NCBI RefSeq assembly: GCF_036507355.1
Contig: NZ_AP027877.1
DNA from: Escherichia coli
GTDB lineage: Bacteria > Pseudomonadota > Gammaproteobacteria > Enterobacterales > Enterobacteriaceae
Length of the DNA: 64,000 nucleotides
Direction: 5' to 3' (one strand)
Under the pieces are notes generated by a model. It made no database searches. It saw nothing but the letters and a program-made list of their open reading frames with translations, and was not told the DNA's origin. Made by a program: the position numbers and the translations under genes. The stretch's first letter is position 1; each line of letters begins with the position of its first letter. Below, piece by piece: positions 5,811-54,044 of the stretch.

Positions 5811-5845
5811 GATACTACGCTGGATACTACAACTAACTAGGTTAG

Positions 5846-5921
5846 TGGTGGGTCGTGCAGGATTCGAACCTGCGACCAATTGATTAAAAGTCAACTGCTC
5901 TACCAACTGAGCTAACGACCC
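5846..5921 (-). tRNA. lysT: tRNA-Lys (UUU)
   Basis: 76-nt tRNA-Lys sequence; first gene of the operon on the minus strand. Confidence 0.95.
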
Positions 5922-6085
5922 ACTTTTTCGTTGCTTTCGGTTTGTTTGATATCCCGTGGCAACGGCGGCATATATTACTGATTTCAGACTTGAGCGCAAC
6001 AAAAATTTCGATGTAGATCACTCAACTGCTTATGATTCGCACGACACGACCAGAAATAATGCGACTTCTGGTCGTGTGTTATGCA

Positions 6086-17818: not shown

Positions 17819-18268
17819 ATGAAGAAAGCAACACTTGTGATTGGCGTTATTGGCGCGGACTGCCATGCAGTAGGCAATAAAGTTCTGGACCGCGTTTTTA
17901 GCAACCACGACTTCAGAGTCATTAATCTGGGCGTAATGGTCAGCCAGGACGAATATATTGATGCTGCCATTGAAACTGGCGCTGACGCGATTGTCGTCTC
18001 CTCTATCTATGGGCATGGCGATATCGACTGTCTGGGCATGCGCGAACGCTGCATCGAGCGTGGACTGGGGGACATCCTGCTCTATGTGGGCGGTAACCTG
18101 GTGGTCGGAAAACATGACTTCGCTGACGTGGAAACCAAATTCAAAGAGATGGGATTTGATCGCGTCTTTGCCCCAAGTCATGACTTAGAAGATGTTTGTC
18201 AGCTGATGGCCCACGATATCAACCAACGTCATGACATTGATACTCGTATTCTTGAAGAGGCTATCTGA
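17819..18268 (+). CDS. glmS: glutamate mutase sigma (S) subunit, B12-binding (methylaspartate mutase small subunit)
   Basis: [24 protein letters not shown]... contains the DxHxxG cobalamin-binding motif and resembles Clostridium GlmS/MutS; start set at the Met preceded by aaaggatt. Confidence 0.88.
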
Positions 18269-19656
18269 TGCAAATCGTCTCTGTCGATATTGGATCGACG
18301 TGGACCAAAGCAGCCCTCTTCACCCGGGAGGGGGACGCGTTAACGTTGGTTAACCACGTACTGACCCCAACCACCACCCATCATCTGGCGAAGGGGTTTT
18401 TCTCCAGCCTGAACCAAGTGTTAAACGTAGATAATGCCCTCCCCCTGTTAAACAGCGGTGAGGTTGCATTGAAGTATTCCTCCTCTGCCAAAGGTGGGCT
18501 GGCGGTTGCCGCAATGGGATTGGTGCCTTCTATCACCCTGGAAACCGCGAAAGTAACCGCTCACTCTGCGGGTGCTAAAATTGCGCAATATTACGCCTAC
18601 AAGCTGAACCGCCGTGATATCCAGGCACTGGAAGAAACGCAGCCCGATATTCTCTTGTTCACCGGCGGCACCGACGGCGGAGAAGAAAGCTACGGACTGA
18701 ATAACGCCCGTGTGCTGGCAGAATCCAAACTCGACTGCGCCATTATTTATGCCGGAAACCGGGATATTCAGGACGAGGTGCAGGAGCTCCTCGGGCATAA
18801 AGACCTGACCATCGTCGACAATGTTCTGCCCGATCTTGACCATCCGAACCCTTTAGCCGCACGCCAGGCTATTTGCGACATATTCCTTAAACGCATCGTT
18901 AAAGGGAAAGGGCTGGATGTCATTGTTGATAAAACAGGCGAAGAACCAATGCCGACACCATGGACGGTCTTTGAACTGGTCAAGGCAATCAGTAACGTCG
19001 ATCACAGCTGGAAAGAGTTCATGCTGATCGACATGGGCGGCGCAACCACCGATGTTTATTCCGTCTGTGCCAACACGCTCTCGCCCGACACCGTTTTACA
19101 CGGCGTACCGGAACCCTTCGTAAAACGGACGGTGGAAGGCGATCTGGGAATGCGCGTCTCGGCAGTGGTGGTTGGTGAAAGTGCGAAAGAGTTAGTCAAT
19201 GTGAATTTTGCTCAGCAACCCGCACAGCTGGACGCTTTTTATCATTACCTCCGTCATCTAGTCGCTCATCCCGACTACTTACCCGCAAATGCAGAAGAGA
19301 AATATTTCGATACCGTCCTGGCCGGACTGTGTGTGGGTTATGCCACCGAAAGACATGCGGGCACCAAAAAAGAGGTCTGCACCTGCGTCGGCAATGTCGA
19401 TTTACAGATGGGACGTGACCTGACAACCGTGCGTAAAGTCGTCGGATCCGGCGGATGGCTCTCGCGTGCCAGTCAGTTCGATATGCATCACTGGTTGAAA
19501 TACCGCGAGTTAAACGACGACGGTAAACGCATTCTCTTACCGACCGAATTTGAATATTACCGCGATTCCCGGGGGCTATTACCACTGCTGGCAAACGTCG
19601 CCAGAGTCGATCCGCTGGCCGCCGCGCGCACCAGTATTCAATGCTTAACCCTATAA
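18268..19656 (+). CDS. glmL: glutamate mutase accessory protein GlmL/MutL (actin-fold ATPase)
   Basis: 462-aa ORF between the S and E subunit genes as in clostridial mutS-mutL-mutE operons. Confidence 0.8.
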   Translation: MQIVSVDIGSTWTKAALFTREGDALTLVNHVLTPTTTHHLAKGFFSSLNQVLNVDNALPLLNSGEVALKYSSSAKGGLAVAAMGLVPSITLETAKVTAHSAGAKIAQYYAYKLNRRDIQALEETQPDILLFTGGTDGGEESYGLNNARVLAESKLDCAIIYAGNRDIQDEVQELLGHKDLTIVDNVLPDLDHPNPLAARQAICDIFLKRIVKGKGLDVIVDKTGEEPMPTPWTVFELVKAISNVDHSWKEFMLIDMGGATTDVYSVCANTLSPDTVLHGVPEPFVKRTVEGDLGMRVSAVVVGESAKELVNVNFAQQPAQLDAFYHYLRHLVAHPDYLPANAEEKYFDTVLAGLCVGYATERHAGTKKEVCTCVGNVDLQMGRDLTTVRKVVGSGGWLSRASQFDMHHWLKYRELNDDGKRILLPTEFEYYRDSRGLLPLLANVARVDPLAAARTSIQCLTL

Positions 19657-19674
19657 CAATTAAGGCTGCAATCA

Positions 19675-21120
19675 ATGGAACTTCGAAATAAGAAATTAAC
19701 CCATGACGAATTCATGACCGAGCGGCAACAGGTACTGAAAACCTGGGAAACCGGCAAGGATGTTGAAAACTTTGAAGATGGCGTTAAATACCAACAAACC
19801 ATCCCTGAGCATAAACGCTTCTCTCTTGCGCTGCTGAAAGCAGACAAGGAAGGTAAAACCCTTAGCCAACCGCGCGCAGGTGTGGCGCTGATGGACGAAC
19901 ACATCGAACTGCTGAAAACACTACAAGAAGAGTGCGATCTGCTGCCAAGCACCATCGATGCATATACCCGTCTGAATCGGTACGAAGAAGCGGCTGTAGG
20001 GATTAAAAAATCCATCGAAGCCGGAACCTCTAAACTGAACGGTTTACCGGTAGTTAACCATGGTGTCGCAGCTTGCCGTCGCCTCACCGAAACCCTGCAA
20101 AAACCGCTACAGATCCGCCACGGCACGCCAGATGCGCGTCTGCTGGCTGAAATCTCAATGGCCAGCGGCTTTACCAGTTATGAAGGCGGTGGCATTTCCT
20201 ACAACATTCCGTATGCCAAACGCGTAACGCTGGAAAAATCGATCCGCGACTGGCAGTACTGCGACCGTTTAATGGGGATGTATGAAGAACACGGGATCCG
20301 CATCAACCGCGAACCGTTTGGCCCACTAACGGGTACGCTGATCCCGCCGTTTATCTCGCATTCTATCGCGATAATCGAAGGCTTGCTGGCACTGGAACAG
20401 GGTGTGAAATCTATCACCGTTGGTTATGGCCAGGTCGGCAGCCTGACGCAGGATGTTGCGGCGATCCAGTCTCTGCGTGAACTTGCACACGAATATTTTC
20501 AGAGCTATGGCTATACCGACTATGAATTGAGTACCGTGTTTCACCAGTGGATGGGCGGCTTTCCGGAAGACGAATCGAAAGCGTTCGCTATTATCTCCTG
20601 GGGTGCAGCCGTCGCGGGGATGTCTGGTGCCACCAAAGTCATCACCAAAAGTCCGCACGAAGCCTGGGGTATCCCGACTGCCGCTGCCAACATTCAGGGG
20701 CTGAAAGCCTCCCGCCAGATGCTCAACATGGTCAATGAGCAGAAATTCCCGCCGTGCCCTGCGGTTGAACTGGAAATTGAACTGATTAAGAGCGAGGTTC
20801 GCGCTGTACTGAATAAAGTGTTCGAACTGGGTAATGGTGATATTGCGCGCGGTACGGTGCTGGCATTTGAAGCGGGCGTACTGGATGTGCCATTTGCGCC
20901 AGCCGCCTGCAACGCGGGCAATATTCTTCCGGTCCGTGACAACACCGGCGCGATACGCGTACTGGAAGCCGGAGCCGTTCCATTGCCAAAAGATATTCTC
21001 GATCTCCACCACGATTACGTTGCGGAACGCGCACGCTTTGAAGGACGCCAACCGACATTCCAGATGGTTGTAGATGACATCAATGCTGTATCCCACAGTA
21101 AATTAATAGGAAGACCATAA
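19675..21120 (+). CDS. glmE: glutamate mutase epsilon (E) catalytic subunit
   Basis: 481-aa ORF MELRNKKLTHDEFMTERQQVL... with extended similarity to clostridial GlmE (QPRAGVALMDEHIELL, PSTIDAYTR, GGGISYNIPYAK, REPFGPLTGTL, FQMVVDD). Confidence 0.9.
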   Translation: MELRNKKLTHDEFMTERQQVLKTWETGKDVENFEDGVKYQQTIPEHKRFSLALLKADKEGKTLSQPRAGVALMDEHIELLKTLQEECDLLPSTIDAYTRLNRYEEAAVGIKKSIEAGTSKLNGLPVVNHGVAACRRLTETLQKPLQIRHGTPDARLLAEISMASGFTSYEGGGISYNIPYAKRVTLEKSIRDWQYCDRLMGMYEEHGIRINREPFGPLTGTLIPPFISHSIAIIEGLLALEQGVKSITVGYGQVGSLTQDVAAIQSLRELAHEYFQSYGYTDYELSTVFHQWMGGFPEDESKAFAIISWGAAVAGMSGATKVITKSPHEAWGIPTAAANIQGLKASRQMLNMVNEQKFPPCPAVELEIELIKSEVRAVLNKVFELGNGDIARGTVLAFEAGVLDVPFAPAACNAGNILPVRDNTGAIRVLEAGAVPLPKDILDLHHDYVAERARFEGRQPTFQMVVDDINAVSHSKLIGRP

Positions 21121-22361
21121 TGAAAATAAAACAGGCTCTGTTCACCGCTGGCTACTCCTCATTCTATTTCGATGACCAGCAGGCGATAAAAAACGGAGCG
21201 GGTCATGACGGCTTTTTTTATACCGGGGAGCCGGTAACACAGGGGTTTAACGCCGTTCGTCAGGCCGGGGAGTGCGTATCGGTACAGTTGATTCTGGAAA
21301 ACGGCGCGGTCGCTGTAGGTGACTGTGCTGCCGTACAGTATTCCGGGGCAGGTGGTCGCGACCCACTGTTCCTCGCAGAGCTCTTTATTCCGTTCCTCAA
21401 CGACCATATCAAGCCATTACTGGTAGGCCGCGATGTGGATGCTTTCCTGCCGAATGCCCGTTTCTTCGACAAATTGCGTATTGACGGCAACTTGCTGCAT
21501 ACCGCCGTGCGCTACGGATTATCACAGGCGCTGCTTGATGCTACCGCGCTGGCAACCGGCCGTCTGAAAACTGAAGTGGTCTGTGATGAATGGCAGTTGC
21601 CACGCGTGGCGGAATCCATTCCATTATTTGGTCAGAGCGGCGACGATCGATATATCGCCGTCGATAAGATGATCCTTAAGGGCATCGACGTGCTGCCCCA
21701 TGCGCTGATTAATAACGTCGAAGAGAAGCTGGGCTTTAAAGGTGAAAAACTGCGCGAATATGTCCGCTGGTTGTCGGATCGCATTCTAAGCAAGCGCACC
21801 AGCGCACGCTACCACCCAACCTTGCACATCGATGTATACGGCACTATCGGTCTGATCTTCGATATGGATCCGCTTCGCTGTGCGCAATACATCGCCAGCC
21901 TGGAAAAAGAAGCGCAAGGCCTGCCGCTCTACATTGAAGGGCCGGTCGATGCCGGTAACAAGCCCGATCAAATTCGCCTGCTGACCGCGATTACCAAAGA
22001 GCTGACGCGCCTCGGTTCCGGCGTGAAAATTGTGGCCGATGAATGGTGTAACACCTACCAGGATGTTGTTGATTTCACTGATGCCGCCAGTTGTCACATG
22101 GTGCAAATCAAAACCCCGGATCTGGGCAGTATTCACAACATCGTCGATGCGGTTCTTTACTGCAACAGCCACAGCATGGAAGCGTACCAGGGCGGCACCT
22201 GCAATGAAACTGATGTCAGTGCCCGCACCTGTGTCCACGTCGCCCTTGCCGCTCGCCCTATGCGTATGCTGGTAAAGCCAGGGATGGGCTTTGACGAAGG
22301 CCTCGATATCGTCTTCAACGAAATGAATCGTACTATCGCGCTGTTGCAGGCTAAGGATTAA
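21120..22361 (+). CDS. mal: 3-methylaspartate ammonia-lyase
   Basis: 413-aa ORF; motifs GDCAAVQYSGAGGRDPLF, PHALINNVEEKLG, HMVQIKTPDLG match clostridial methylaspartase (enolase superfamily). Confidence 0.9.
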   Translation: MKIKQALFTAGYSSFYFDDQQAIKNGAGHDGFFYTGEPVTQGFNAVRQAGECVSVQLILENGAVAVGDCAAVQYSGAGGRDPLFLAELFIPFLNDHIKPLLVGRDVDAFLPNARFFDKLRIDGNLLHTAVRYGLSQALLDATALATGRLKTEVVCDEWQLPRVAESIPLFGQSGDDRYIAVDKMILKGIDVLPHALINNVEEKLGFKGEKLREYVRWLSDRILSKRTSARYHPTLHIDVYGTIGLIFDMDPLRCAQYIASLEKEAQGLPLYIEGPVDAGNKPDQIRLLTAITKELTRLGSGVKIVADEWCNTYQDVVDFTDAASCHMVQIKTPDLGSIHNIVDAVLYCNSHSMEAYQGGTCNETDVSARTCVHVALAARPMRMLVKPGMGFDEGLDIVFNEMNRTIALLQAKD

Positions 22362-22364
22362 CAA

Positions 22365-22565
22365 ATGGCTCGTTCTTTTAAAGTCTTATCGCCAACAGCA
22401 ATCCTCGGGTATGGATTCCCGGAAGAGAGCTTCCGCAAAGCGATGGCAGAATCACCCGATCTGATCGCCGTTGATGCAGGCTCTTCCGATCCAGGCCCCC
22501 ACTACCTCGGGCAGGCAAACCGTTTACCGATCGCGCAGGGGTCAAGCGCGATCTGCGCTATATGA
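22365..22565 (+). CDS. N-terminal segment of a DUF1446 (AtuA-like) protein, separated from the main ORF by a frame change
   Basis: 66-aa ORF ending in ATGA overlap with the next ORF; the next ORF's frame is open upstream to 22475, so the two likely form one gene. Confidence 0.45.
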   Translation: MARSFKVLSPTAILGYGFPEESFRKAMAESPDLIAVDAGSSDPGPHYLGQANRLPIAQGSSAICAI

Positions 22566-23734
22566 TCACCGCAGGCGTGCAAAATAATATACCGGTGGTG
22601 ATCGGAACGGCCGGCGGTTCTGGTGCCGCTCCACACCTGGAGTGGTGCCGAGAAATAATTCATGAGATTGCCCAGGAAGAGCACCTCTCGTTCTCGATGG
22701 CGTTGATCCCGGCAGACGTTGACAAAGCCATCGTCCACCAGGCGCTGGATAACGGCAAAATCACGGCGCTGGATTTTGTCCCGCCGTTAACCCACGACGC
22801 GATTGACGAAAGTACGTATATCGTCGCGCAAATGGGCATCGAACCCTTCCAGCGGGCGCTAAAAGAAGGCGCGCAAGTGGTGCTGGGTGGGCGCGCTTAC
22901 GACCCGGCCTGCTTTGCTGCGCTACCGATCATGCAAGGCTTTGATGAAGGTCTGGCGCTGCATTGTGGGAAAATCCTTGAATGCGCGGCAATCGCCGCAA
23001 CGCCCGGCTCAGGCTCTGACTGTGCGATGGGCATCATTGATGACAACGGCTTTACGCTGAAGACATTTAATCCGAAGCGTAAATTTACCGAAACGTCAGC
23101 AGCTGCACACACACTGTATGAGAAATCCGATCCCTACTTCCTGCCAGGACCTGGCGGCGTGTTGAACCTGAAAGGCTGCACATTTAAAGCAGTCAATGAC
23201 GGCGAAGTCTACGTCAGCGGTTCTAAGCATGAAGAAACGCCGTATGCCCTGAAACTGGAAGGTGCACGACGGGTGGGCTTCCGCTGTCTGACCATCGCCG
23301 GAACGCGCGACCCGATTATGATCGCCGGGATCGATAAACTCATCGATGAAGTCAAAACCAGCGTTTCGCGTAACCTGTCGCTCGACGATGACAGCATTCG
23401 CATCAATTTCCACCTGTACGGCAAAAACGGGGTGATGGGAGACCATGAACCGATGCAAACTGCCGGGCATGAGCTGGGGATTGTTCTTGATGTAGTTGCA
23501 CCGACCCAGGAAATTGCCAATAGCGTTTGCTCGCTGGTGCGCTCTACCATGCTGCACTACGGCTATGAAAACCGCATCGCTACCGCAGGTAATCTGGCGT
23601 TCCCGTTCTCCCCTTCTGATATCCAGGGCGGGCCGGTATACGAATTTTCCATATATCACCTGATTGAAGCCAACGACGCTCTGCGTTTTGATTTCCATAT
23701 TGAACAGGTGACGCCAGAAGGAGTTCAGGCATGA
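22562..23734 (+). CDS. DUF1446 (AtuA-like) family protein, main part
   Basis: 390-aa ORF; combined with the upstream 66-aa ORF gives about 456 aa, the usual DUF1446 size; followed by its usual small DUF4387 partner. Confidence 0.65.
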   Translation: MITAGVQNNIPVVIGTAGGSGAAPHLEWCREIIHEIAQEEHLSFSMALIPADVDKAIVHQALDNGKITALDFVPPLTHDAIDESTYIVAQMGIEPFQRALKEGAQVVLGGRAYDPACFAALPIMQGFDEGLALHCGKILECAAIAATPGSGSDCAMGIIDDNGFTLKTFNPKRKFTETSAAAHTLYEKSDPYFLPGPGGVLNLKGCTFKAVNDGEVYVSGSKHEETPYALKLEGARRVGFRCLTIAGTRDPIMIAGIDKLIDEVKTSVSRNLSLDDDSIRINFHLYGKNGVMGDHEPMQTAGHELGIVLDVVAPTQEIANSVCSLVRSTMLHYGYENRIATAGNLAFPFSPSDIQGGPVYEFSIYHLIEANDALRFDFHIEQVTPEGVQA

Positions 23735-24048
23735 AACAGTCAATTGTCTCACTGGCGCAAGTCATTCGTTCGAAAAATGCCGGACCTTACGAACTGGTTT
23801 TAGATATTTTATTTAAAACGAAAGAAAACTATGAGCGAGTTAAATCATCAGGGCAATTAACCCCAGAACTGATTGCGCGCTTATATCATGTTGAACCTGA
23901 CTTTATTCATCGTATTGTCTGGTTTGATCCTTCTAACGCAGTAAAAATCGTCATGCCACGAGATATTATCTCCGGGAATGTAGGTGACAATGATGTCTAT
24001 GGTGCACAGCAACATGCACCTTTATTAAATATGAGTTTCGATTTGTAA
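23731..24048 (+). CDS. DUF4387 family small protein (partner of DUF1446/AtuA-like proteins)
   Basis: 105-aa ORF translationally coupled (ATGA overlap) to the DUF1446 ORF. Confidence 0.6.
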   Translation: MKQSIVSLAQVIRSKNAGPYELVLDILFKTKENYERVKSSGQLTPELIARLYHVEPDFIHRIVWFDPSNAVKIVMPRDIISGNVGDNDVYGAQQHAPLLNMSFDL

Positions 24049-24131
24049 AAATCCGAATACTTTTAGCCAACTGACATCCCGTCACTTATTGCAGTTCAAC
24101 ACTTCAGCTATTTGTAAGGTTGTAATAGCAG

Positions 24132-24163
24132 GTAGATGCCTGAATCTCTATTCAGGCATCTAC
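24132..24163 (+). terminator. strong stem-loop between the DUF4387 gene and the transporter gene (terminator or attenuator)
   Basis: perfect 14-bp inverted repeat gtagatgcctgaat/attcaggcatctac with 4-nt loop, followed by a T-rich stretch. Confidence 0.4.
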
Positions 24164-24208
24164 TTCTCCTGATTCTGATTTATCGCCGTGCACCTGATGG
24201 AGGAAAAA

Positions 24209-25489
24209 ATGAAGAAAATAAGTTTAACCACGATGATTCTTTTGGCGCTGGTACTTGGAATGATTATCGGCGTAGTGCTCAATAACACTGCTTCACCGGA
24301 AACAGCAAAACTCTATGCGCAAGAAATATCGATATTCACGACGATTTTCTTACGACTGATAAAAATGATTATCGCTCCGTTAGTGGTCTCTACCCTGGTG
24401 GTAGGTATTGCTAAAATGGGCGATGCCAAAGCCCTTGGTCGTATTTTTTCTAAAACACTCTTTTTATTTATTTGCGCCTCATTGCTGTCAATTGCCTTAG
24501 GCTTGATAACGGTAAATTTCTTCATGCCAGGCACAGGAATTAATTTTGTTGCACACGGTGCCGAAACCACAGGAGTGGTCGCGTCAGAACCCTTTACGCT
24601 AAAAGTATTTATTTCGCATGCTTTCCCCACCAGCATTGTCGATGCCATGGCGCACAATGAAATTTTGCAAATCGTGGTGTTCTCAATTTTCCTCGGCTGT
24701 AGCCTGACGGCGATTGGCGAGAAAGGCAGCGCCATCGTTCACGCCTTAGATTCGCTGGCACATGCCATGTTAAAGCTCACTGGCTACGTCATGCTCTTCG
24801 CTCCCCTGACCGTATTCGCCGCTATTTCAGCATTGATTGCTGAACGAGGACTGGCAGTTATGGTGAGCGCCGGGATCTTTATGGGTGAATTTTATTTCAC
24901 CATGTTATTACTTTGGGTGCTGCTTATCGGTCTGGCCATCGTTTATGTCGGCCCCTGCATCAGACGCCTGACCCGCGCCCTTTCGGAACCCGCCCTGCTG
25001 GCATTTACCACATCCAGTTCTGAAGCGGCTTTTCCGGGAACGCTTGAAAAACTGGAGCAATTTGGCGTTTCCCCCAAAATTGCCAGCTTTGTCTTACCCA
25101 TTGGCTACTCATTTAATCTCGTTGGATCAATGGCCTACTGCTCCTTCGCCACAGTTTTCATCGCCCAGGCCTGCAATATCCATTTATCCATCGGTGAGCA
25201 AATCACCATGCTGTTGATCCTGATGTTGACCTCGAAAGGAATGGCTGGCGTACCACGCGCCTCAATGGTGGTTATCGCCGCCACGCTCAACCAGTTCAAT
25301 ATTCCGGAAGCGGGGCTGATCTTGCTGATGGGCGTTGATCCGTTCCTTGATATGGGGCGTTCCGCGACAAACGTCATGAGCAACGCAATGGGCGCTGCGA
25401 TGGTGAGTCGGTGGGAAGGCGAACATTTCGGCGAGGGCTGTCGGGGTAAAGCATTAAAACCCAATGAATCGAACGTTGCTCTGCCCTGA
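24209..25489 (+). CDS. dicarboxylate/amino acid:cation symporter (DAACS family; glutamate/aspartate or C4-dicarboxylate transporter)
   Basis: polytopic membrane ORF with DAACS-like N-terminus; start chosen at MKKISL preceded by a GGAGGA ribosome-binding site (ORF track starts 21 nt earlier at 24188). Confidence 0.8.
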   Translation: MKKISLTTMILLALVLGMIIGVVLNNTASPETAKLYAQEISIFTTIFLRLIKMIIAPLVVSTLVVGIAKMGDAKALGRIFSKTLFLFICASLLSIALGLITVNFFMPGTGINFVAHGAETTGVVASEPFTLKVFISHAFPTSIVDAMAHNEILQIVVFSIFLGCSLTAIGEKGSAIVHALDSLAHAMLKLTGYVMLFAPLTVFAAISALIAERGLAVMVSAGIFMGEFYFTMLLLWVLLIGLAIVYVGPCIRRLTRALSEPALLAFTTSSSEAAFPGTLEKLEQFGVSPKIASFVLPIGYSFNLVGSMAYCSFATVFIAQACNIHLSIGEQITMLLILMLTSKGMAGVPRASMVVIAATLNQFNIPEAGLILLMGVDPFLDMGRSATNVMSNAMGAAMVSRWEGEHFGEGCRGKALKPNESNVALP

Positions 25490-25596
25490 GGGGGATCTTA
25501 AGCAATCAGAAGCCAATGACTACGCATTTTTATAAGCCGGATCATGAAGTTAGACGGCAATTAAGTAACACTAACGTTTAAGGTGAAAAGTGAAAT

Positions 25597-27249
25597 ATGT
25601 CCAAACCATTTATCTGGCAAGAACCGTTTCTACAAAATAAAGACGGTACAGAATATACATTAATTAGCGATCAACATATTACAGTAACGGAATTAGACGG
25701 CGAAGAAGTGATAAAAATCGCTCCTGAAGCATTAACGCTGCTTGCCCGGCAGGCATTTTATGAAGCCTCTTTTTTCTTACGTTCCGCTCATTTGCAACAG
25801 GTCGCCAGCATTCTTAACGATCAGCAGGCCAGCAGTAATGATAAATACGTTGCGTTGCAGTTATTACGTAATGCTGAAGTCTCAGCAAAAGGGGTATTAC
25901 CCAACTGTCAGGATACCGGCACCGCAACTATTGTTGCCAGTAAAGGGCAACAGATATGGACCGGAAGTAACGACGCCGAAGCTTTAAGTAAAGGCATTTA
26001 CAGTACTTTCCAGGAAAATAATCTGCGCTTTTCACAAAATGCGCCGCTGGATATGTATACCGAAGTCAATACGCAAACCAATCTCCCGGCGCAGATTGAT
26101 ATCAGCGCTGTCGCTGGTGATGAGTACCATTTTCTCTGTGTTAATAAAGGGGGCGGCTCCGCCAATAAAGCCGCGCTTTATCAGGAAACCAAATCCTTAT
26201 TGCAACCAGAAAAACTGACCGCATTTTTAATCGAAAAAATGAAATCGCTGGGCACCGCTGCCTGCCCGCCTTACCACATCGCCTTTGCCGTCGGAGGGCT
26301 TTCAGCCGATCAAACCTTAAAAGTTGCCAAGCTGGCCTCAACGAAATATTACGACAATTTGCCCACCAGCGGAAACGAGCAGGGACAAGCATTCCGTGAT
26401 ATTGAGCTGGAAAAAGCGTTGCTCGAGGCCAGTCAGCAATTTGGTATTGGTGCACAATTTGGGGGGAAATATTTCGCTCATGATATTCGCGTCATTCGTC
26501 TGCCGCGTCACGGTGGCTCTTGCCCGATAGCTATGGCGCTCTCCTGTTCTGCCGATCGCAATATCAAAGCAAAAATTAACAAACACGGTATCTGGCTAGA
26601 AAAACTCGAACACAATCCGGGGCAATATATTCCAGCCTCATTGCGGGAAGAAAATCACGCGCAACATGTACAACTGGATCTAAACCGTCCGTTGCGTGAC
26701 GTGATGCTGGATCTCGCCAGATTACCGGTAGGTACCCGCGTGTCGTTAAGTGGTCCCATCGTAGTGGCGCGCGATATCGCCCACGCCAAAATAAAAGCGC
26801 GGCTGGATAGCGGCGAATCGATGCCGGAGTACCTGAAGCATCATATTGTCTATTACGCTGGCCCGGCGAAAACACCGGAGAACATGGCCTGCGGTTCACT
26901 GGGTCCAACCACGGGCGGTCGAATGGATGGTTATGTCGATACCTTCCAGGCGGCCGGCGGCAGTCTGGTGATGTTATCGAAAGGTAACCGCAGCCAGCAG
27001 GTCACCGATGCCTGTCACAAACATGGCGGCTTCAATCTGGGAAGTATTGGCGGTGCAGCTGCGTTACTGGCGCAAGAATATGTCAAAAGTCTGCGTTGCC
27101 TGGAATACCCGGAGCTGGGTATGGAAGCGGTGTGGATGATGGAAGTGGAAAATCTGCCCGCATTCATCCTGGTAGATGATAAAGGCAATAATTTCTTTAG
27201 TCAGTTTGAGCAGCAACACCGCTGCGCCAGTTGCCCTGCGGGACATTAA
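25597..27249 (+). CDS. fumD: class I (Fe-S) fumarate hydratase homologue, mesaconase/fumarase FumD type
   Basis: 550-aa ORF collinear with E. coli FumA ([40 protein letters not shown]); clustered with glutamate mutase and methylaspartase as described for fumD. Confidence 0.85.
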
Positions 27250-27258
27250 GGAAAATGA

Positions 27259-27861
27259 ATGGAAGCGCGAATTTCAACTGAACGGCATGTGCAGCGCCAA
27301 CAGAAATTGAAGGAACAGGTCGATACGCGCGTCGCGGCGGCGATAGAGAAAAAAGGGATCTTGATTGTTTTCACCGGCAACGGCAAAGGGAAATCCACTG
27401 CCGCGTTTGGTACTGTGACGCGCGCGGTGGGTCATGGCAAAACGGTGGGGGTTGCGCAGTACATCAAGGGGCAATGGGACAACGGCGAATACAACCTTCT
27501 CCAGCCGCTGGGGGTTGAGTTTCATATTATGGGAACCGGTTTTACCTGGGAGACACAGAACCGGCAAGCGGATATCGACGCGGCGAAAGAGGTCTGGTCG
27601 GAAAGCAAACGGATGCTGGCTGACAAGCGTTACGACTTAGTGGTGCTTGATGAGCTGACCTATATGCTGGCTTACCATTATTTGGATACCGAAGAAGTGA
27701 TCGCTTCTCTGCAAAACCGCCCGGCACAACAAAGTGTCATTGTCACCGGACGCGGTTGCCACAGTCAGATATTAAAAATGGCGGATACGGTAAGCGAAAT
27801 CCGCCCCGTCAAACATGCTTTTGATAACGGCATTCAGGCCCAGCCGGGTATAGACTGGTAA
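27259..27861 (+). CDS. cob(I)yrinic acid a,c-diamide / cob(I)alamin adenosyltransferase (BtuR/CobA family)
   Basis: 200-aa ORF with P-loop GNGKGKSTAAFG and high overall similarity to E. coli BtuR. Confidence 0.85.
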   Translation: MEARISTERHVQRQQKLKEQVDTRVAAAIEKKGILIVFTGNGKGKSTAAFGTVTRAVGHGKTVGVAQYIKGQWDNGEYNLLQPLGVEFHIMGTGFTWETQNRQADIDAAKEVWSESKRMLADKRYDLVVLDELTYMLAYHYLDTEEVIASLQNRPAQQSVIVTGRGCHSQILKMADTVSEIRPVKHAFDNGIQAQPGIDW

Positions 27862-27864
27862 TAA

Positions 27865-27897
27865 CTGCGCCTGGCATCCCGCCAGGCGCAGGTTTTA
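27865..27897. terminator. bidirectional intrinsic terminator between the adenosyltransferase gene and the convergent LysR gene
   Basis: ctgcgcctggc-atcc-gccaggcgcag hairpin followed by gtttta. Confidence 0.6.
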
Positions 27898-28557
27898 CAT
27901 CTCCTGCGGTACGACCGATTTCGCCAGCAACCATTCACGAAATTGCTGCAAGTGCGGTGAGTCAGACTTCTCTTCCTGCCACGTCATAATAAAACGATTA
28001 CCGGTACGAATAGGCACATCACAGGGAATCACCATATCGCCACTATCCAAATCATGTTGAATAGCGAAACGTGGTAACAGCGCCACGCCGAGATTAGAGC
28101 GCACGGCGGCAATCAGCATTGAAAGCAAATCGAAACGTGGTCCGTTATTGACCAACGGACTGCTAACGCCAGATAAAGCAAACCACTCTTCCCAGCCAGT
28201 AATACGGGTGCTTTGATGCAGAAGCGGTAACTCAGTAAGCAGTTCTGCCACTGACAGCTTTTGATCGGACATTGCAAGCAAACTGCCGCTGCATACCGGC
28301 AAAATCTCCTCATCAAAGAGATATTCTACTTCCGCCCAGGGCGCGCAAAAATTTTCGCGCATAATGACAGCATCGTACTCCCGATTAAGAAAATCGCCGT
28401 TATTAGCTAAAGAATGAATATTAACAATAATATCGGGATGTAACTTTGTGAATTCATGTAAATTTGGGATCAACCAGTGGGTACTAAAAGTAGGATTAAC
28501 GGCAAGTTCAATAACCTGAACCGTAGGCTGCCAGGTCATAATGGTATTGGTATCGCG
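27895..28557 (-). pseudogene. LysR-family transcriptional regulator, C-terminal effector-domain portion (gene interrupted by IS1)
   Basis: 214-aa ORF from an internal Met; reading frame continues upstream (RDTNTI) to the IS1 junction. Confidence 0.8.
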
Positions 28558-28612
28558 GGTGATGCTGCCAACTTACTGATTTAGTGTATGATGGTGTTTT
28601 TGAGGTGCTCCA

Positions 28613-28888
28613 GTGGCTTCTGTTTCTATCAGCTGTCCCTCCTGTTCAGCTACTGACGGGGTGGTGCGTAACGGCAAAAGCACCGCCGGACATCAGCGCT
28701 ATCTCTGCTCTCACTGCCGTAAAACATGGCAACTGCAGTTCACTTACACCGCTTCTCAACCCGGTACGCACCAGAAAATCATTGATATGGCCATGAATGG
28801 CGTTGGATGCCGGGCAACAGCCCGCATTATGGGCGTTGGCCTCAACACGATTTTACGTCACTTAAAAAACTCAGGCCGCAGTCGGTAA
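28613..28888 (+). CDS. insA: IS1 protein InsA
   Basis: 91-aa [46 protein letters not shown]... identical in character to IS1 InsA. Confidence 0.95.
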
Positions 28889-29310
28889 CCTCGCGCATAC
28901 AGCCGGGCAGTGACGTCATCGTCTGCGCGGAAATGGACGAACAGTGGGGCTATGTCGGGGCTAAATCGCGCCAGCGCTGGCTGTTTTACGCGTATGACAG
29001 GCTCCGGAAGACGGTTGTTGCGCACGTATTCGGTGAACGCACGATGGCGACGCTGGGGCGTCTTATGAGCCTGCTGTCACCCTTTGACGTGGTGATATGG
29101 ATGACGGATGGCTGGCCGCTGTATGAATCCCGCCTGAAGGGAAAGCTGCACGTAATCAGCAAGCGATATACGCAGCGAATTGAGCGGCATAACCTGAATC
29201 TGAGGCAGCACCTGGCACGGCTGGGACGGAAGTCGCTGTCGTTCTCAAAATCGGTGGAGCTGCATGACAAAGTCATCGGGCATTATCTGAACATAAAACA
29301 CTATCAATAA
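28807..29310 (+). CDS. insB: IS1 transposase InsB frame (expressed as InsAB' by -1 frameshifting)
   Basis: 167-aa ORF in the -1 frame overlapping the insA 3' end, typical IS1 organisation. Confidence 0.9.
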
Positions 29311-29325
29311 GTTGGAGTCATTACC

Positions 29326-29577
29326 GGTATCGCGTTCCAGCTTATTTAATGTTTCTTTTACTATCCCCAGGTAATACTTCCCAGCATCATTAAGAAAAAT
29401 GCGTTTTTTAGAGTGTGAAAATAACGGAGTACGTAAAAATTCCTCCAGCGCACTTACTTGTCTGAATACTGCACTTTGGGTTAACGCTAACTCCTCTGCC
29501 GCTCTGGTATAACTTTCATGACGTGCGACGACCTCAAAAGTCACCAGCAGTTCCGTTTTAGGTATTTTCCCTCGCAT
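29326..29577 (-). pseudogene. LysR-family transcriptional regulator, N-terminal HTH portion (gene interrupted by IS1)
   Basis: MRGKIPKTELLVTFEVVARHESYTRAAEELALTQSAVFRQVSALEEFLRTPLF... is a LysR-type HTH; the frame runs into IS1 after ...KLERDT. Confidence 0.8.
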
Positions 29578-30243
29578 AATGCCGTCCCTTAAAAATAGTT
29601 TAAACCATCAAAAATACATTACTTATTACGAAGTAATGGTAACCAAAGCAGCAATAAATAATTTATAAGAATCATGATTGACATTTATAAACCAGTAAGC
29701 CTGGCGTGACAAATATCTTAATCAGATAATAATAATCCGAAAAGCACAGCGCCTTTCGAATTATCCGGAATCACATTAAGTGAAAATTATTAAATTGATA
29801 TCATTTATCATATCTGTGGATATTATGATAAACAATCAACAAAGATTTTATTTTTGATTTATAGCATATCCCTCTAAGAATTTTTGCGATGCTGCAATAT
29901 CCGGGGTAAAGACCCGATCCTGGCTGACAAATGGCACGACTTGACGAAAAGCGGTGAACATCGCTTTTGTTGATTTACTTAACGCTACGGTCAAACGCTG
30001 GGAAGCCAGTGCATCAGGTAACGATTCGAAATTCGCCGTCGTTCTTATTCGTGGCTTGCGGTCGGTTGCGGCAATCCACAGTGGCTGTGGTCATGCAGTC
30101 AAGCCTGCAGTCAGATTTCGACCGTGGTTAACCGTTTAAGGCATAAAAAAGGCCATCATACGATGGCCAACCATGTCGAAACCGACAGCCCTTCGCCATT
30201 CCTGTAGAGGGAAGCGGCGAGGGCTATTTCTTATTACAGATAT

Positions 30244-41987: not shown

Positions 41988-42313
41988 TTCGTTAGTTATG
42001 TCTATCGACAAAAAAACGTAATCGGACACAAATACATAATTACACGTTACAAGAATACATATCCGATAACTAAATAAAATCCTAATTTTTCATTCACCAC
42101 CACCGTTATCCCGCCAATCGATGTAGAATACATTGGGTAGCACCCACAATTAAATAAACTCGTAATAGGATTAATTCACTTTATTTATGATTCGAGAGCT
42201 TTGAGAAACTCTCAAACATAATGTAGCAACATTAATATTATTACATGAGCAAAAAACCACTATTCTGTCGGAATAATTAGTATACTTTATCATAGCCCAT
42301 GAAGGATTCATGT

Positions 42314-42880
42314 ATGTTTAAAGGACAAAAAACACTGGCCGCCCTGGCCATATCTCTACTATTCGCTTCACCTGTTTTTGCTGCAGATGAAGGATCTGGT
42401 GAAATCCACTTTAAAGGTGAAGTTATTGAAGCACCTTGTGAAATTCACCCTGATGACCTTGATATGAACATTGACCTGGGTGAAGTAACCACATCCCACA
42501 TAAATCGAGAACATCATAGCGAGAAAAAACCTGTCAATATTCGCTTAATCAACTGTGATATTGCAGACTGGGATGATGGCAACGGTGGCGTGGTCTCAAA
42601 GGTAGGCGTGACCTTCGACAGCACAGCTAAAACGACAGGTGCAACGCCGCTCCTTAGTAACATCAGTGCTGGCGAGGCTACCGGCGTTGGCGTACGTCTC
42701 ATGAACAAAGATGAATCATTTGTTGTATTGGGAACAGAAGCGCCAACAATTGACTTATTGGCAAGTTCAACAGAACAAACGTTAAACTTCTTTGCCTGGA
42801 TGGAACAGATGGATAACGCAGTTTCGGTTACCGCGGGGGCCGTTACTGCTAACGCAACTTACGTTCTGGATTACCAATAA
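42314..42880 (+). CDS. ybgD: fimbrial (pilin) subunit, chaperone-usher type
   Basis: MFKGQKTLAALAISLLFASPVFA signal peptide plus pilin-like body; 188 aa from this Met. Confidence 0.9.
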   Translation: MFKGQKTLAALAISLLFASPVFAADEGSGEIHFKGEVIEAPCEIHPDDLDMNIDLGEVTTSHINREHHSEKKPVNIRLINCDIADWDDGNGGVVSKVGVTFDSTAKTTGATPLLSNISAGEATGVGVRLMNKDESFVVLGTEAPTIDLLASSTEQTLNFFAWMEQMDNAVSVTAGAVTANATYVLDYQ

Positions 42881-42888
42881 TCCTTTTT

Positions 42889-42913
42889 AAGGCGGCTGAT
42901 TAGCCGCCTTTTG
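42889..42913 (+). terminator. stem-loop after ybgD (partial terminator or attenuator before the usher gene)
   Basis: aaggcggct-gatt-agccgcctt hairpin followed by ttgcg. Confidence 0.5.
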
Positions 42914-42929
42914 CGAATATTGTTCAGGT

Positions 42930-45389
42930 ATGGATGCCGTGAATATTTATCGACTCTCTGTTCTTTCCTGTCTGGCAATGGTAACCCCTCCTGCGCTGGC
43001 AGCTGAATTTAACCTTAACGTTCTCGATAAGTCGATTCGGGATAGCGTTGATATTTCGTTGCTCAATCAAAAAGGCGTCGTAGCTCCCGGCGATTACTTT
43101 GTTAGTGTTACGGTTAATAATAATAAAATCAGTAATGGGCAACAAATTCGCTGGCAAAAATCTGGCGATAAAATTATTCCTTGTATCAATGAATCGCTGA
43201 TCGAACTCTTCGGACTTAAATCCGACTTTCGTAAAAAATTACCGGCAATAAAAGAATGTGTCGATTTTAGTGTCTTCCCTAAAATCATCTTTACTTTCGA
43301 TCAGGCAAATCAACAGCTCAATATTACAATCCCGCAGGCATGGCTGGCGTGGCATTCAGAAAACTGGACGCCACCCTCAACGTGGAATAACGGTATTCCT
43401 GGCTTCCTGATGGATTACAACCTGTTTGCCAGCACTTATCGCCCACAAAGCGGCAGCAGCAGCAACAACCTGAACGCCTATGGCACCACGGGCCTCAACG
43501 CCGGGGCATGGCGTCTGCGCAGCGATTATCAGCTTAGCCAGTCCGATAGCGGCGACAACCGTGAACAATCCGGGGCGATTTCACGGACCTACCTGTTCCG
43601 CCCGTTACCGCAAATAGGTTCCCGATTAACCCTGGGCGAAACCGATTTTAGCTCTAACATTTTTGATGGTTTCTCCTATACCGGTGCGGCGTTAGCCAGC
43701 GACGATCGAATGCTCCCCTGGGAGTTACGCGGCTACGCGCCGCAAATCAGCGGCATCGCACAGACTAACGCCACGGTCACGATAAGCCATTCTGGTCGCG
43801 TGATTTACCAGAAAAAAGTTCCGCCAGGCCCATTTATTATTGATGACCTGAATCAGTCAGTGCAAGGTACACTGGATGTCAAAGTGAGCGAAGAAGATGG
43901 ACGGGGGAATAACTTCCAGGTTTCAGCGGCCTCTACCCCGTTCCTGACGCGTCAGGGCCAGGTGCGCTATAAACTGGCTGCCGGTCGCCCGCGTTCCTCT
44001 ATGTCGCACCACACCGAGGATGAAACCTTCATTAGCCATGAAGTCTCCTGGGGGATGCTCTCCAACACTTCACTATATGGCGGCATGCTTCTCGCAGGCG
44101 ATGACTATCGTTCCGGCGCGCTGGGTATTGGGAAAAATATGCTCTGGCTGGGGGCGCTGTCGTTTGACGTGACCTGGGCCGACAGCCATTTTGATACTCA
44201 ACAGGATGAGCAGGGTTACAGCTACCGCTTTAACTACAGCAAACAGGTTGATGCGACCAACAGCACCATCTCATTGGCAGCCTATCGCTTCTCCGATCGC
44301 CATTTTCACAGCTACGCTAACTACATTGATCACAAATACAATGACGCCGACGCGCAGGATGAAAAGCAAACCATCAGCCTCTCCTTCGGTCAGCCTATTA
44401 CTCCGCTGAATCTTAATCTCTACGCCAACATCCTGCATCAGAGCTGGTGGAATGCGGATACCTCCACCACGGCCAACATTACCGTCGGTTTTAACGTCGA
44501 CATTGGCGACTGGAAAGATATTTCTGTCTCGACCTCGTTCAACACCACCCATTATGAAGATAAAGATCGCGACAACCAGATTTACTTTTCGATCTCCTTA
44601 CCGATTGGGGAAAGTGGTCGACTGGGTTATGACATGCAGAACAACAGTAATACTACCACCCACCGCATGTCGTGGAACGATACCCTGGATGAACGAAACA
44701 GTTGGGGAATGTCGGCTGGAATACAATCCGATCGCCCGGATAACGGTGCGCAGGTCAGCGGCAATTACCAACACCTCAGTTCGGCGGGGGAATGGGATCT
44801 GACCGGAACCTATGCCGCCAATGATTACACTTCCGCCAGTGCCAGTTGGAGCGGCTCGTTTACCGCGACTCAACATGGCGCGGCATTCCATCGCCGCAGT
44901 TCCACCAATGAACCACGCCTGATGGTCAGCACCGACGGCGTGGGCGATATTCCGATTCAGGGCAATATTGACTACACCAACCGCTTTGGTATTACCGTGG
45001 TACCGTTTGTTTCCAGCTACCAGCCTACGACGGTGGCGGTCAATATGAACGACTTGCCTGACGGCGTTACCGTTTCCGAAAACGTGGTGAAAGAAACCTG
45101 GACCGAAGGCGCCATCGGCTTTAAATCGCTGGCGTCCCGCGCCGGGAAAGATCTCAACGTCATTATCAGCGATGCTAACGGGCATTTCCCGCCGCTCGGT
45201 GCCGATGTTCGCCAGGCTGAAGGCGGTGTCAGCGTCGGGATGGTTGGCGAAAACGGTCACGCATGGCTGAGTGGGGTCGATGAAAATCAACAATTTACCG
45301 TGCACTGGGGCGACCAGAAAACGTGTGCCATTCATCTGCCGGAACATCTGGAAGATGTGACTAAGCGCCTGATTTTACCCTGTCATTAA
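42930..45389 (+). CDS. ybgQ: fimbrial outer-membrane usher protein
   Basis: 819-aa ORF with usher-family features; K-12 YbgQ starts 3 codons later. Confidence 0.9.
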   Translation: MDAVNIYRLSVLSCLAMVTPPALAAEFNLNVLDKSIRDSVDISLLNQKGVVAPGDYFVSVTVNNNKISNGQQIRWQKSGDKIIPCINESLIELFGLKSDFRKKLPAIKECVDFSVFPKIIFTFDQANQQLNITIPQAWLAWHSENWTPPSTWNNGIPGFLMDYNLFASTYRPQSGSSSNNLNAYGTTGLNAGAWRLRSDYQLSQSDSGDNREQSGAISRTYLFRPLPQIGSRLTLGETDFSSNIFDGFSYTGAALASDDRMLPWELRGYAPQISGIAQTNATVTISHSGRVIYQKKVPPGPFIIDDLNQSVQGTLDVKVSEEDGRGNNFQVSAASTPFLTRQGQVRYKLAAGRPRSSMSHHTEDETFISHEVSWGMLSNTSLYGGMLLAGDDYRSGALGIGKNMLWLGALSFDVTWADSHFDTQQDEQGYSYRFNYSKQVDATNSTISLAAYRFSDRHFHSYANYIDHKYNDADAQDEKQTISLSFGQPITPLNLNLYANILHQSWWNADTSTTANITVGFNVDIGDWKDISVSTSFNTTHYEDKDRDNQIYFSISLPIGESGRLGYDMQNNSNTTTHRMSWNDTLDERNSWGMSAGIQSDRPDNGAQVSGNYQHLSSAGEWDLTGTYAANDYTSASASWSGSFTATQHGAAFHRRSSTNEPRLMVSTDGVGDIPIQGNIDYTNRFGITVVPFVSSYQPTTVAVNMNDLPDGVTVSENVVKETWTEGAIGFKSLASRAGKDLNVIISDANGHFPPLGADVRQAEGGVSVGMVGENGHAWLSGVDENQQFTVHWGDQKTCAIHLPEHLEDVTKRLILPCH

Positions 45390-45403
45390 TTAAGGAAAAG
45401 ACG

Positions 45404-46135
45404 ATGACATTTGTTAAAGGATTCCCTTTGATTCTTCTGGTTGCCAGTATGTGCAGCCACGGCGCAGTGCAGCCTGACCGCACGCGCATCATCTTTAATA
45501 GCAAAGATAAAGCAACCAGCCTGCGCGTGGAAAACCGCAGCGATAAACTCCCCTACCTCGCCTATTCATGGATAGAAAATGAAAAGGGAGAGAAAAGCGA
45601 TGAATTTCTCGTCGCCCTGCCGCCTATCCAGCGACTGGAGCCAAAAGCGACTTCGCAGGTTCGGATCATGAAACAAGCCGCCACCGCGAAATTACCCACC
45701 GATCGCGAATCTCTCTTTTACTATAACCTGCGTGAAATTCCGCCTGTCCCGGAAGGCAGCGAGGGCCATGCGATCCTGCAAGTCGCCGTCCAAAGTCGCA
45801 TTAAGCTATTCTGGCGGCCCGCCGCATTACGCAAAAAAATGGGCGATCATGTTGAGCAACAGCTACAGGTTAGCCAGCAGAATAACCAGCTTACCCTGAA
45901 AAACCCGACCGGATACTATCTGACTATTGCCTATCTTGGGCGGGATGAGAAAGGCGTGCTGCCTGGCTTTAAAAGCACGATGGTCGCACCGTTCAGTTCG
46001 GTCACCACCAGCACGGGCAGCTATAGCGGCAAGCAGTTTTATATTGGCTACATGGACGACTACGGCGCATTGCGTATGAACACGCTCTCCTGCCAGCGGC
46101 AATGCCGCCTGCAGCCGGTGGAGAATAAAAAATGA
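45404..46135 (+). CDS. ybgP: fimbrial periplasmic chaperone
   Basis: 243-aa PapD-like chaperone ORF. Confidence 0.9.
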
Positions 46136-47193: not shown

Positions 47194-47341
47194 TTTAGCC
47201 TATTGCCCTTTCCAGCCGGAGAGGGCTTCTTCGGTTAATTGCCAATTTTCCGGCTTTTATTGATTACCGTTATTTTTTCCATGCCCGGCATTCTTTATGC
47301 TGTATCGATACACCAAAGAGTAAATAATGAGGGAGCAAAGG

Positions 47342-49176: not shown

Positions 49177-49211
49177 GGTGATATCCTTTTTTCATTCTTT
49201 ATTAAACGGGG

Positions 49212-51518: not shown

Positions 51519-51540
51519 TTTCGATCCCTCTGATTATTCG

Positions 51541-52371: not shown

Positions 52372-54036
<1,665 letters not shown>

Positions 54037-54044
54037 CAGGTCAA

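Follow-up and report, generated by a model that had tools for sequence, protein, structure and literature searches.

Regulators of the LysR type (LTTRs) such as GcvA, DsdC and PenR/AmpR are mainly inducer-dependent activators. LTTR genes typically, though not obligatorily, lie divergent from the operon that they regulate. The insertion sequence IS1, known from E. coli and from enterobacterial plasmids in isoforms such as IS1A and IS1R, has imperfect terminal repeats, an insA gene, an A6C motif and an insB' frame, and produces a 9-bp target duplication. The enterobacterial glutamate-fermentation (methylaspartate) cluster was described by Kronen and Berg (2015; PMC4682846); its inducing conditions and its regulator are not yet established, and an O157:H7 strain did not express the island under any laboratory condition tried (PMC4682846). 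ECs_0755 of O157:H7 Sakai, labelled 'LTTR' in Figure 5 of that study, is the same gene as the LTTR gene studied here, which we call lysR. It occupies the same place, between sucD and cobO, but is intact in the reference strains and interrupted by IS1 in the E. coli DNA that we analyzed, a stretch of 64 kb (hereafter referred to as the window). The relevant parts of the window are as follows.

17819–27861, plus strand: methylaspartate (glutamate fermentation) module, located by tblastn of the annotated TUM13936 proteins against the window.
27865–27891, plus strand: GC-rich hairpin terminator of 11 pairs, nine of which are G-C, separating the convergent genes cobO and lysR.
27895–28557, minus strand: 3′ part of lysR, consisting of the repeated codons 82–84 followed by codons 85–301 (effector-binding domain).
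29326–29577, minus strand: 5′ part of lysR, codons 1–84 (winged helix-turn-helix, HTH, with the larger part of the linker helix).

Between the two parts of lysR lies the insertion, composed of the following features.

28549–28557: left copy of the 9-bp target-site duplication, GGTATCGCG, corresponding to codons R82-D83-T84 on the sense strand.
28558–29325, plus strand: complete IS1 of the IS1A type, 768 bp, with its left inverted repeat (IRL) at the left, identified by direct sequence reading and nucleotide match.
28558–28580, plus strand: IRL, GGTGATGCTGCCAACTTACTGAT.
28565–28592, plus strand: inward-facing promoter-like site within IRL, CTGCCA-16-TATGAT, from a consensus scan.
28613–28888, plus strand: insA, intact, 91 amino acids, from the ORF list and the NCBIfam models NF033558 and NF050000.
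28807–29310, plus strand: insB' reading frame, open, 167 amino acids, from the ORF list and NF033558.
28864–28870, plus strand: A6C programmed −1 frameshift motif, AAAAAAC.
29303–29325, plus strand: right inverted repeat (IRR), ATCAATAAGTTGGAGTCATTACC.
29326–29334: right copy of the target-site duplication, GGTATCGCG.

The element agrees with the described IS1 in every respect. IRR and the reverse complement of IRL agree at 18 of the 23 positions, IRL occurs once in the window, and all 768 bp are identical (100%) to copies on many plasmid records, where the element is annotated as 'IS1-like element IS1A family transposase'. InsA aligned with profile positions 1–81 of NF033558 (IS1 family transposase; 91.3 bits) and InsB with positions 75–199 (145.6 bits, E = 1.8e-42), the cut-off of this model, 100 bits, being set for the whole protein; InsA also matched the zinc-binding domain model NF050000. 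A −1 shift at the A6C motif yields an open InsAB' fusion of 232 amino acids without a stop, and the promoter-like site at 28565–28592 is at the known position of pIRL, the element's own insA promoter. The copy is intact in all sequence features and may be transposition-competent. Compared with IS1A and IS1R, which have the same length, the element itself shows no differences, and only its insertion site is new. The insertion is a standard, strain-specific IS1 gene disruption of an ordinary kind, not a new kind of system.

The target site lies in an AT-rich stretch (G+C near the insertion site, 39–42%). GGTATCGCG occurs just twice in the window, both strands counted, and at any one fixed position a 9-mer would match by chance with a probability of about 4e-6. 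In-silico excision of IS1 together with one repeat copy gave 906 nucleotides encoding an ORF of 301 amino acids, which reads ...KLERDT/NTIMTWQPTVQ... across the junction; IS1 is located between codons 84 and 85 of lysR (27895–29577, minus strand). The reading of this DNA that had preceded our analysis, made from its letters and ORFs (the sequence-only reading), had described a complete 768-bp IS1 with insA and insB intact, perfect 9-bp direct repeats on its sides, and an LTTR frame that is restored on excision. Sequence and ORF reading bore out the first point, both GGTATCGCG copies were found, as against one in relatives with an empty site (see below), and the residues at the restored junction are exactly those given there.

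The same reading had called the insertion recent, and the public sequence record agrees. The restored 301-amino-acid protein occurs without any difference on at least 1000 contigs in public records, and of 5426 complete E. coli genomes, 1119 have the intact 906-bp lysR over its full length; the match was one unbroken aligned piece in 39/39 full-length matches listed. At the nucleotide level, the restored lysR is 99.1% identical to the O157:H7 copies and 99.9% identical to that of TUM13936. Comparison with related strains, which the sequence-only reading had proposed as a check, revealed the uninterrupted regulator in three near-identical relatives (L053, L054 and L055), found by searching with the exact FumD allele. 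In all three the site is empty, GGTATCGCG is present once and lysR is uninterrupted, at 99.95–100% identity over up to 11.6 kb, and their alignments to the two flanks of the window overlap by exactly 9 bp. The insertion itself was encountered nowhere else: none of the 5426 complete E. coli genomes has IS1 at this lysR site, a 41-nucleotide junction sequence was absent from the GTDB representative genomes of 100,044 species, and exact look-up gave no record of the ORF created at the junction (110 amino acids) or of the truncated AtuA ORF of the island (390 amino acids; see below). Among complete genomes, the best match had 99.2% identity in the island and 98.3% in the 42–62 kb flank. These results, taken together with the 100% identity of the element to IS1A, show a genuine, recent and strain-specific IS1 transposition. 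We assign a probability of about 0.9 to the reading that an IS1A-type copy moved recently into codon 84/85 of the island LTTR gene and made the 9-bp duplication.

The restored protein has the two-domain architecture that GcvA, DsdC and AmpR/PenR share. Pfam HTH_1 (PF00126) matched residues 9–67 (E = 1.2e-16) and LysR_substrate (PF03466) residues 96–293 (E = 5.8e-28). IS1 cuts the linker helix and separates the former domain from the latter, in agreement with the earlier claim of a split between the DNA-binding and the effector domains. The N-terminal ORF now present extends through IRR to 29245 and encodes 84 native and 26 IS1-encoded residues, whereas the longest ORF left in the 3′ part starts at M88 (28539) and encodes 214 residues. 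Since IS1 interrupts the linker helix that joins the two domains, lysR::IS1 is a null allele, though maybe not a clean null with respect to promoter occupancy: the 110-residue fragment, with a complete HTH and the greater part of the dimerising linker helix, may still bind DNA. No gene follows lysR on its strand, so we expect no polar effects.

Among the NCBIfam models, those closest to the restored protein were GcvA, DsdC and PenR. The best of them, the GcvA model NF008352, gave 221.5 bits, below its curated cut-off of 288, and the protein is therefore a GcvA paralogue rather than GcvA, although residues 3–300 aligned with E. coli GcvA (PDB 8y6u) at E = 9e-43. The genomic context also differs from that of GcvA. 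Upstream of the gene, and sharing its strand, lies sucD. At the 3′ end of the module the gene and cobO are transcribed toward each other, an arrangement that is convergent rather than divergent.

What the LTTR controls is suggested by its neighbourhood. The module comprises glmS, glmL, glmE, mal, an AtuA-family gene, a DUF4387 gene, a dicarboxylate/amino-acid symporter gene, fumD and cobO, in an order that matches TUM13936 and Sakai, with amino acid identities of 97–100%. The lysR orthologue adjoins cobO-fumD...mal-glmE in 33/33 species-representative loci with downstream DNA, distributed over nine genera, while the upstream neighbour of lysR varies among these loci; the orthologue is intact in 34 of the 35 species in which it is recognisable. 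Immediately upstream of lysR the window has a remnant of hutH; in some strains a full hut operon is found upstream. The conserved synteny points to the LTTR as a putative regulator of the methylaspartate module. The sequence-only reading had named it as the likely regulator; the adjacency on which this would rest stands, and a literature search, locus tags included, found no experiments that tie the LTTR to the glm, mal or fumD promoters. Neither did a palindrome search combined with a cross-genus comparison upstream of lysR identify a convincing conserved LTTR box. The search for T-N11-A operators returned many short palindromes throughout the AT-rich intergenic regions. The palindrome at 29617–29638 was confined to Escherichia, and a ATAAATTAAAC-TATTTTTG element upstream of the lysR ATG was conserved across genera; neither had a link to the upstream regions of glmS (compared in Escherichia loci only), the symporter gene or fumD.

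One lesion of the island had escaped the sequence-only reading: its AtuA-family gene is frameshifted (G4 to G3), while the eight other island genes are full length. The frameshift predates IS1, as the empty-site relatives L053 and L054 have it in common with the window.

We read the course of events as follows. An intact IS1A-type copy transposed into lysR codon 84/85 and duplicated 9 bp. This split the gene into an 84-residue HTH-plus-linker part extended by 26 IS1-encoded residues and an effector ORF devoid of a promoter and a ribosome-binding site. Loss of this putative activator would then lock the island in a silent, uninduced state, as is expected of an LTTR resembling GcvA, DsdC and AmpR, since such proteins are usually inducer-dependent activators. 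For this last step, the silencing, we consider the odds to be about even. Given the earlier AtuA frameshift in the lineage, the event resembles a further stage of decay in an accessory island that goes unused, rather than a regulatory innovation.

The strongest alternative is that the insertion was phenotypically neutral, either because the island was already defective or silent or because the LTTR controls something else, so that lysR became a plain pseudogene under relaxed selection. The AtuA-family frameshift, being older than IS1, speaks for this view, as do the lack of laboratory expression of the island and the open fate of citramalate (PMC4682846), and the hutH remnant or hut operon upstream of lysR makes another regulatory target conceivable. 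Against it, lysR has kept its place beside the glm-mal-fumD-cobO block in nine genera despite differing upstream neighbours, and eight island genes remain full length in the window. Moreover, loss of the AtuA-family gene need not disable the pathway, since the role of this gene in it is not established. We regard neutrality as a serious possibility, somewhat less probable than silencing by loss of an activator.

A second alternative inverts the sign of the effect, as the sequence-only reading had allowed: were the LTTR a repressor, IS1 would de-repress glm-mal-fumD constitutively, and the resulting gain of expression could be favoured by selection. The silence of the island in O157:H7 (PMC4682846) would be accounted for by a repressor too, and an activator lacking its inducer fits it equally well. 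Lesions of the same gene in other strains are what one would expect if its loss were sometimes advantageous, and several independent ones exist. Strain MEW has IS1 17 bp upstream of the lysR ATG, in the 5′ leader; strain EC2641 has an IS1-adjacent deletion in lysR; and Escherichia sp. MOD1-EC7003 has an IS10-like insertion at codons 153–156. Elsewhere there are at least two nonsense alleles (E75stop and E81stop) and at least five small-deletion alleles. All of them are separate events at other positions, and none is the insertion of the window. They were gathered among the matches listed, without a denominator, and imply no rate relative to neighbouring genes; in addition, the look-up with the 214-residue fragment favours N-terminal lesions by design. 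Intact alleles are far commoner, the exact intact protein being on at least 1000 contigs as against 42 with the 214-residue fragment, and 34 of the 35 species keep lysR intact. The nearest characterised relatives, GcvA, DsdC and PenR/AmpR, are mainly inducer-dependent activators, and the AtuA-family frameshift is more in keeping with disuse than with selection for expression. De-repression is thus unlikely, and we retain loss of an activator as the preferred reading.

The same collection of lesions could be taken to mean that lysR is repeatedly inactivated in Escherichia because selection, and not neutral decay, switches the B12-dependent island, the IS1 allele being able to revert by precise excision and so to act as a slow on/off switch. 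Reversion of this kind is conceivable because neither half of lysR shows any damage and the 9-bp repeats have not diverged; as an account of this locus, we think selected switching improbable.

It is highly improbable that the insertion created a new regulatory output, with a hybrid promoter facing outward from IS1 driving the effector-domain fragment or genes beyond it. The sequence-only reading had suggested that IS1 might supply such activity toward the effector fragment and the adenosyltransferase, and this suggestion had to be abandoned. An outward-facing −35 sequence, TTGGCA, does exist in IRL, but the hexamer 17 nucleotides from it, AATACC, is a poor −10, and the sole acceptable −10, TACCAT, is at 19 nucleotides and ends 1 nucleotide before the ATG, which would place the start of transcription within the ORF. 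A consensus scan detected no outward promoter-like site at either end of IS1, just the inward pIRL, and no Shine-Dalgarno sequence precedes the ATG at 28539 (M88). Because cobO is convergent, read-out from IS1 past the 11-pair hairpin at 27865–27891 would be antisense to it, and an effector domain without an HTH is unable to regulate transcription alone. We rejected the hybrid promoter as a candidate on account of the unusable −10, the lacking ribosome-binding site and the strong terminator before cobO.

It is scarcely credible that the pieces of lysR represent two natural genes or that IS1 is an assembly artefact: the public assemblies that include a separately called 214-residue LysR_substrate ORF behind a short HTH_1 ORF turned out on alignment to carry one colinear gene broken by a scaffold gap, by deletions of 1 bp or 10 bp, or by differing nonsense mutations, on which ground the two-gene candidate was rejected; the uninterrupted lysR was matched at full length in the 1119 complete genomes; and the ends of IS1 are precise, the site is empty in near-identical relatives, and the 9-bp duplication is perfect, which argues against an artefact because assembly error would not make a target duplication. 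In annotation, the two LysR fragments should be treated as one pseudogene and not as two genes.

Beyond this strain the significance of the insertion is small. It is a clean and datable IS1 knockout of the regulator of an accessory island, for which the states before and after the event are both available. This natural lysR-null strain and its near-isogenic lysR+ relatives form a pair with which the control of the enterobacterial methylaspartate cluster could be tested.

Direct reading of 27700-29800, together with a script check, bore out every coordinate that the sequence-only reading had assigned to an IS1 and its target-site duplication (TSD) in the LysR-type regulator gene (lysR), including the intact insA/insB and the perfect 9-bp flanking repeats. 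The features of the region are:

27865-27891, hairpin 3′ of lysR, 11 pairs, 9 of them GC
27895-29577, minus strand, lysR, split by IS1
28549-28557 and 29326-29334, the 9-mer GGTATCGCG, abutting both ends of IS1
28558-29325, IS1, exactly 768 bp
28613-28888, insA, open, 91 aa
28807-29310, insB′ frame, open, 167 aa
28864-28870, A6C slippery motif

The element is a canonical IS1, which starts with GGTGATGCTGCCAACTTACTGAT and ends with ATCAATAAGTTGGAGTCATTACC (inverted repeats matching at 18 of 23 positions) and is 100% identical over its full length to many plasmid copies labelled IS1A family. A −1 shift at the A6C motif gives an uninterrupted InsAB′ of 232 aa, and the InsA and InsB′ products both match NF033558, the curated IS1 transposase model. 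The 64-kb window contains no second left inverted repeat (IRL) of IS1 and, on either strand, no GGTATCGCG beyond the two flanking copies.

With IS1 and one copy of the repeat excised, 906 nt remain, the minus-strand translation of which is a 301-aa protein with the expected in-frame junction, ...KLERDT/NTIMTWQ.... In the restored protein, the Pfam domains HTH_1 and LysR_substrate cover residues 9-67 and 96-293, respectively. The duplicated 9-mer represents codons R82-D83-T84; thus, IS1 cut close to the C-terminus of the linker helix, after codon 84, splitting the DNA-binding from the effector domain as had been proposed. Over its whole length, the restored protein can be aligned with E. coli GcvA (PDB 8y6u; E = 9e-43), and its best NCBIfam match is the GcvA subfamily model, at 221.5 bits vs a cut-off of 288; by its sequence we class it as a GcvA/DsdC/AmpR-like paralogue, not GcvA. 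The 5′ ORF now runs 26 codons into the right inverted repeat, stopping at 29245, and encodes a 110-aa fragment in which the HTH is retained along with most of the linker helix. The 3′ ORF (214 aa) starts at M88, with no Shine-Dalgarno in the preceding ...CGCGATACCAATACCATT, and the HTH and effector domains lie on separate, unlinked ORFs. No gene follows lysR on its strand ahead of the hairpin, so none is open to polarity downstream.

Of 5426 complete E. coli genomes, 1119 have a full-length match (coverage of at least 80%) to the uninterrupted 906-bp gene, the best being TUM13936 (99.9%); the gene was aligned in one piece in all 39 full-length matches listed, and IS1 occupied the same position in none of the 5426. 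The exact 301-aa sequence is present on at least 1000 contigs, and by exact-protein comparison neither half has undergone an amino-acid change since the split. A look-up of the window's exact FumD allele yielded three representative contigs with an empty site, L053 (Logan ERR3330519), L054 (GCA_044688185.1) and L055, which are 99.95-100% identical to both window flanks (1-4 mismatches across as much as 11.6 kb). All three have ...GGTATTGGTATCGCGTTCCAGC... with a single 9-mer and an intact 301-aa gene, and in each the left-flank and right-flank alignments share exactly 9 bp. Judged from these alignments, they form a classic filled-site/empty-site pair with the window, and the insertion is a real one, young and specific to the strain, in agreement with the claim of a recent event.

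The 214-aa C-terminal ORF is recorded as a gene of its own on 42 contigs, a look-up that selects broken alleles by design; such alleles are a small minority. The ten loci that we aligned (L005-L014) each proved to be one colinear gene, broken differently. Within lysR (at about 5740-6645 of these loci), the 5′ third carries at least eight different point lesions among them, all leaving the 214-aa ORF: E81* (L005, L008), E75* (L011), five distinct 1-bp deletions (L006; L009; L010; L013 with L014) and one 10-bp deletion (L007). L012 has a run of N, a scaffolding artefact, and part of the point lesions may be sequencing errors, for instance that of L010, where cobO and the symporter gene are split as well. 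We rejected two naturally separate genes, the ten loci being pseudogene alleles of one.

On the window's plus strand the methylaspartate module reads glmS-glmL-glmE-mal-AtuA family-DUF4387-symporter-fumD-cobO, and lysR converges with it at its 3′ end, followed by sucDCBA; the cluster has been described (Kronen & Berg 2015; PMC4682846), and lysR is an already annotated gene of it. A scan of one representative genome per species identified 35 loci with a recognisable lysR orthologue (79-100% identity), two of which are halves of the MOD1-EC7003 gene, giving 34 orthologous genes. The hosts are Escherichia, Citrobacter, Salmonella enterica subsp. arizonae and diarizonae, Klebsiella, Enterobacter, Raoultella, Pluralibacter, Buttiauxella and Lelliottia. 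In each of the 33 loci that include downstream DNA the orthologue adjoins the module, in the order cobO-fumD-onward in 31; in two Escherichia species fumD directly follows lysR and cobO is not detectable. The upstream neighbour differs (sucD at varying distances, hutH or rtcB). Because the linkage to the module is conserved, we infer that LysR is the island's regulator. The convergent layout is atypical for LysR-type regulators, and we found no experimental paper on LysR in this role. Neither palindromes nor cross-genus alignment of the lysR upstream regions defined an operator. Possible operator/promoter elements are CATTACTTATTACGAAGTAATG (29617-29638, 40-60 bp ahead of the lysR start codon), a palindrome kept in Escherichia alone; ATGCCTGAATCTCTATTCAGGCAT (24136-24159), with 10-bp arms, upstream of the symporter gene; and ATAAATTAAAC-TATTTTTG, just 5′ of the lysR ATG and common to Citrobacter, Salmonella, Klebsiella and Escherichia.

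For effector-responsive regulation the split allele would be a null. This regulator's relatives are mostly inducer-dependent activators, and in an O157:H7 strain the island was not expressed in any laboratory condition tried (PMC4682846). For these two reasons we favour, at a probability of about 0.5, an island that would be locked off and non-inducible without intact LysR. An insertion without effect ranks second, as a possible though less probable outcome, and de-repression of the island, in third place, is unlikely. With its HTH whole and little of the linker helix lost, the 110-aa fragment might still occupy operators.

IS1 had also been suggested to drive transcription outward, toward the effector fragment and the adenosyltransferase. 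Hybrid promoters use an outward −35 box in the IS1 inverted repeat and need a correctly spaced −10 (PMC8764528; PMC9330008). Here the hexamer 17 nt on from the outward TTGGCA in IRL is AATACC, and the sole passable −10, TACCAT, lies 19 nt away, its end a single base short of the ATG (M88). A promoter scan detected only an inward pIRL-like site (28565-28592) and none directed outward at either IS1 end; promoter-like sites in the region are not more numerous than in shuffled controls. As cobO is convergent, transcription toward it would be antisense, into a terminator. An outward hybrid promoter is thus not supported.

Other lesions affect the island in this and other strains:

22365-23734, plus strand, AtuA-family gene (DUF1446 in PMC4682846): 1-bp loss, G4 to G3, at 22509-22511, frameshift at about codon 49, stop at 22563
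Strain MEW (L001, 3924-4691): IS1 17 bp 5′ of the lysR ATG, TSD CCCTTAAAA; an isoform different from the window's, 98.8% identical
Strain EC2641 (L002, 3001-3768): IS1-adjacent deletion from the symporter gene into lysR, taking the lysR 3′ end, cobO, fumD and the greater part of the symporter gene
O157:H7 strain TR01 (L003, 3001-3906): internal stop in lysR
Escherichia sp. MOD1-EC7003 (L048/L049): IS10-like element, ends CTGAGGGATCCCC, at lysR codons 153-156

L053 and L054, which have the empty site, share the AtuA lesion, so it is a genuine mutation of the lineage and older than the IS1 hit. The damage in or beside lysR in the four other strains arose independently of the window's, and together with the AtuA frameshift appears to point to a context of decay. 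Recurrent, selected and possibly reversible switching by lysR inactivation seems very improbable. G+C at the insertion point is 39-42% vs 53% for sucD, in keeping with the preference of IS1 for AT-rich sites.

Strain 14EC033 (NZ_CP024147.1, 4.64 Mb) matches only the first 100 bp of lysR (1566317-1566416, 100% identity), so that most of the gene is missing there; this piece, which carries the annotation of a LysR family regulator, may be a scar of island loss beside sucD. Between sucD and lysR the window has a minus-strand remnant of hutH (histidine ammonia-lyase; 29851-30039), in which 29851-29988 encodes the last 46 aa of HutH (91% identical to that of L007) and 29980-30039 is a second short fragment. 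A complete hut operon occupies this place in some Escherichia strains (L007, L015); thus, the window's sucD-lysR junction arose by deletion. The flank at 42000-62000, with fimbrial (ybgO-Q), RHS, dtpD and phrB genes, matches complete RefSeq E. coli genomes at 98.3% at best and mostly at about 92%, so that the window's lineage is poorly represented among them.

The event is textbook insertional inactivation, of which the allele alone is unrecorded. Its practical value is for work on the regulation of the cluster, as it offers a natural lysR-null strain together with lysR+ relatives that are near-isogenic.
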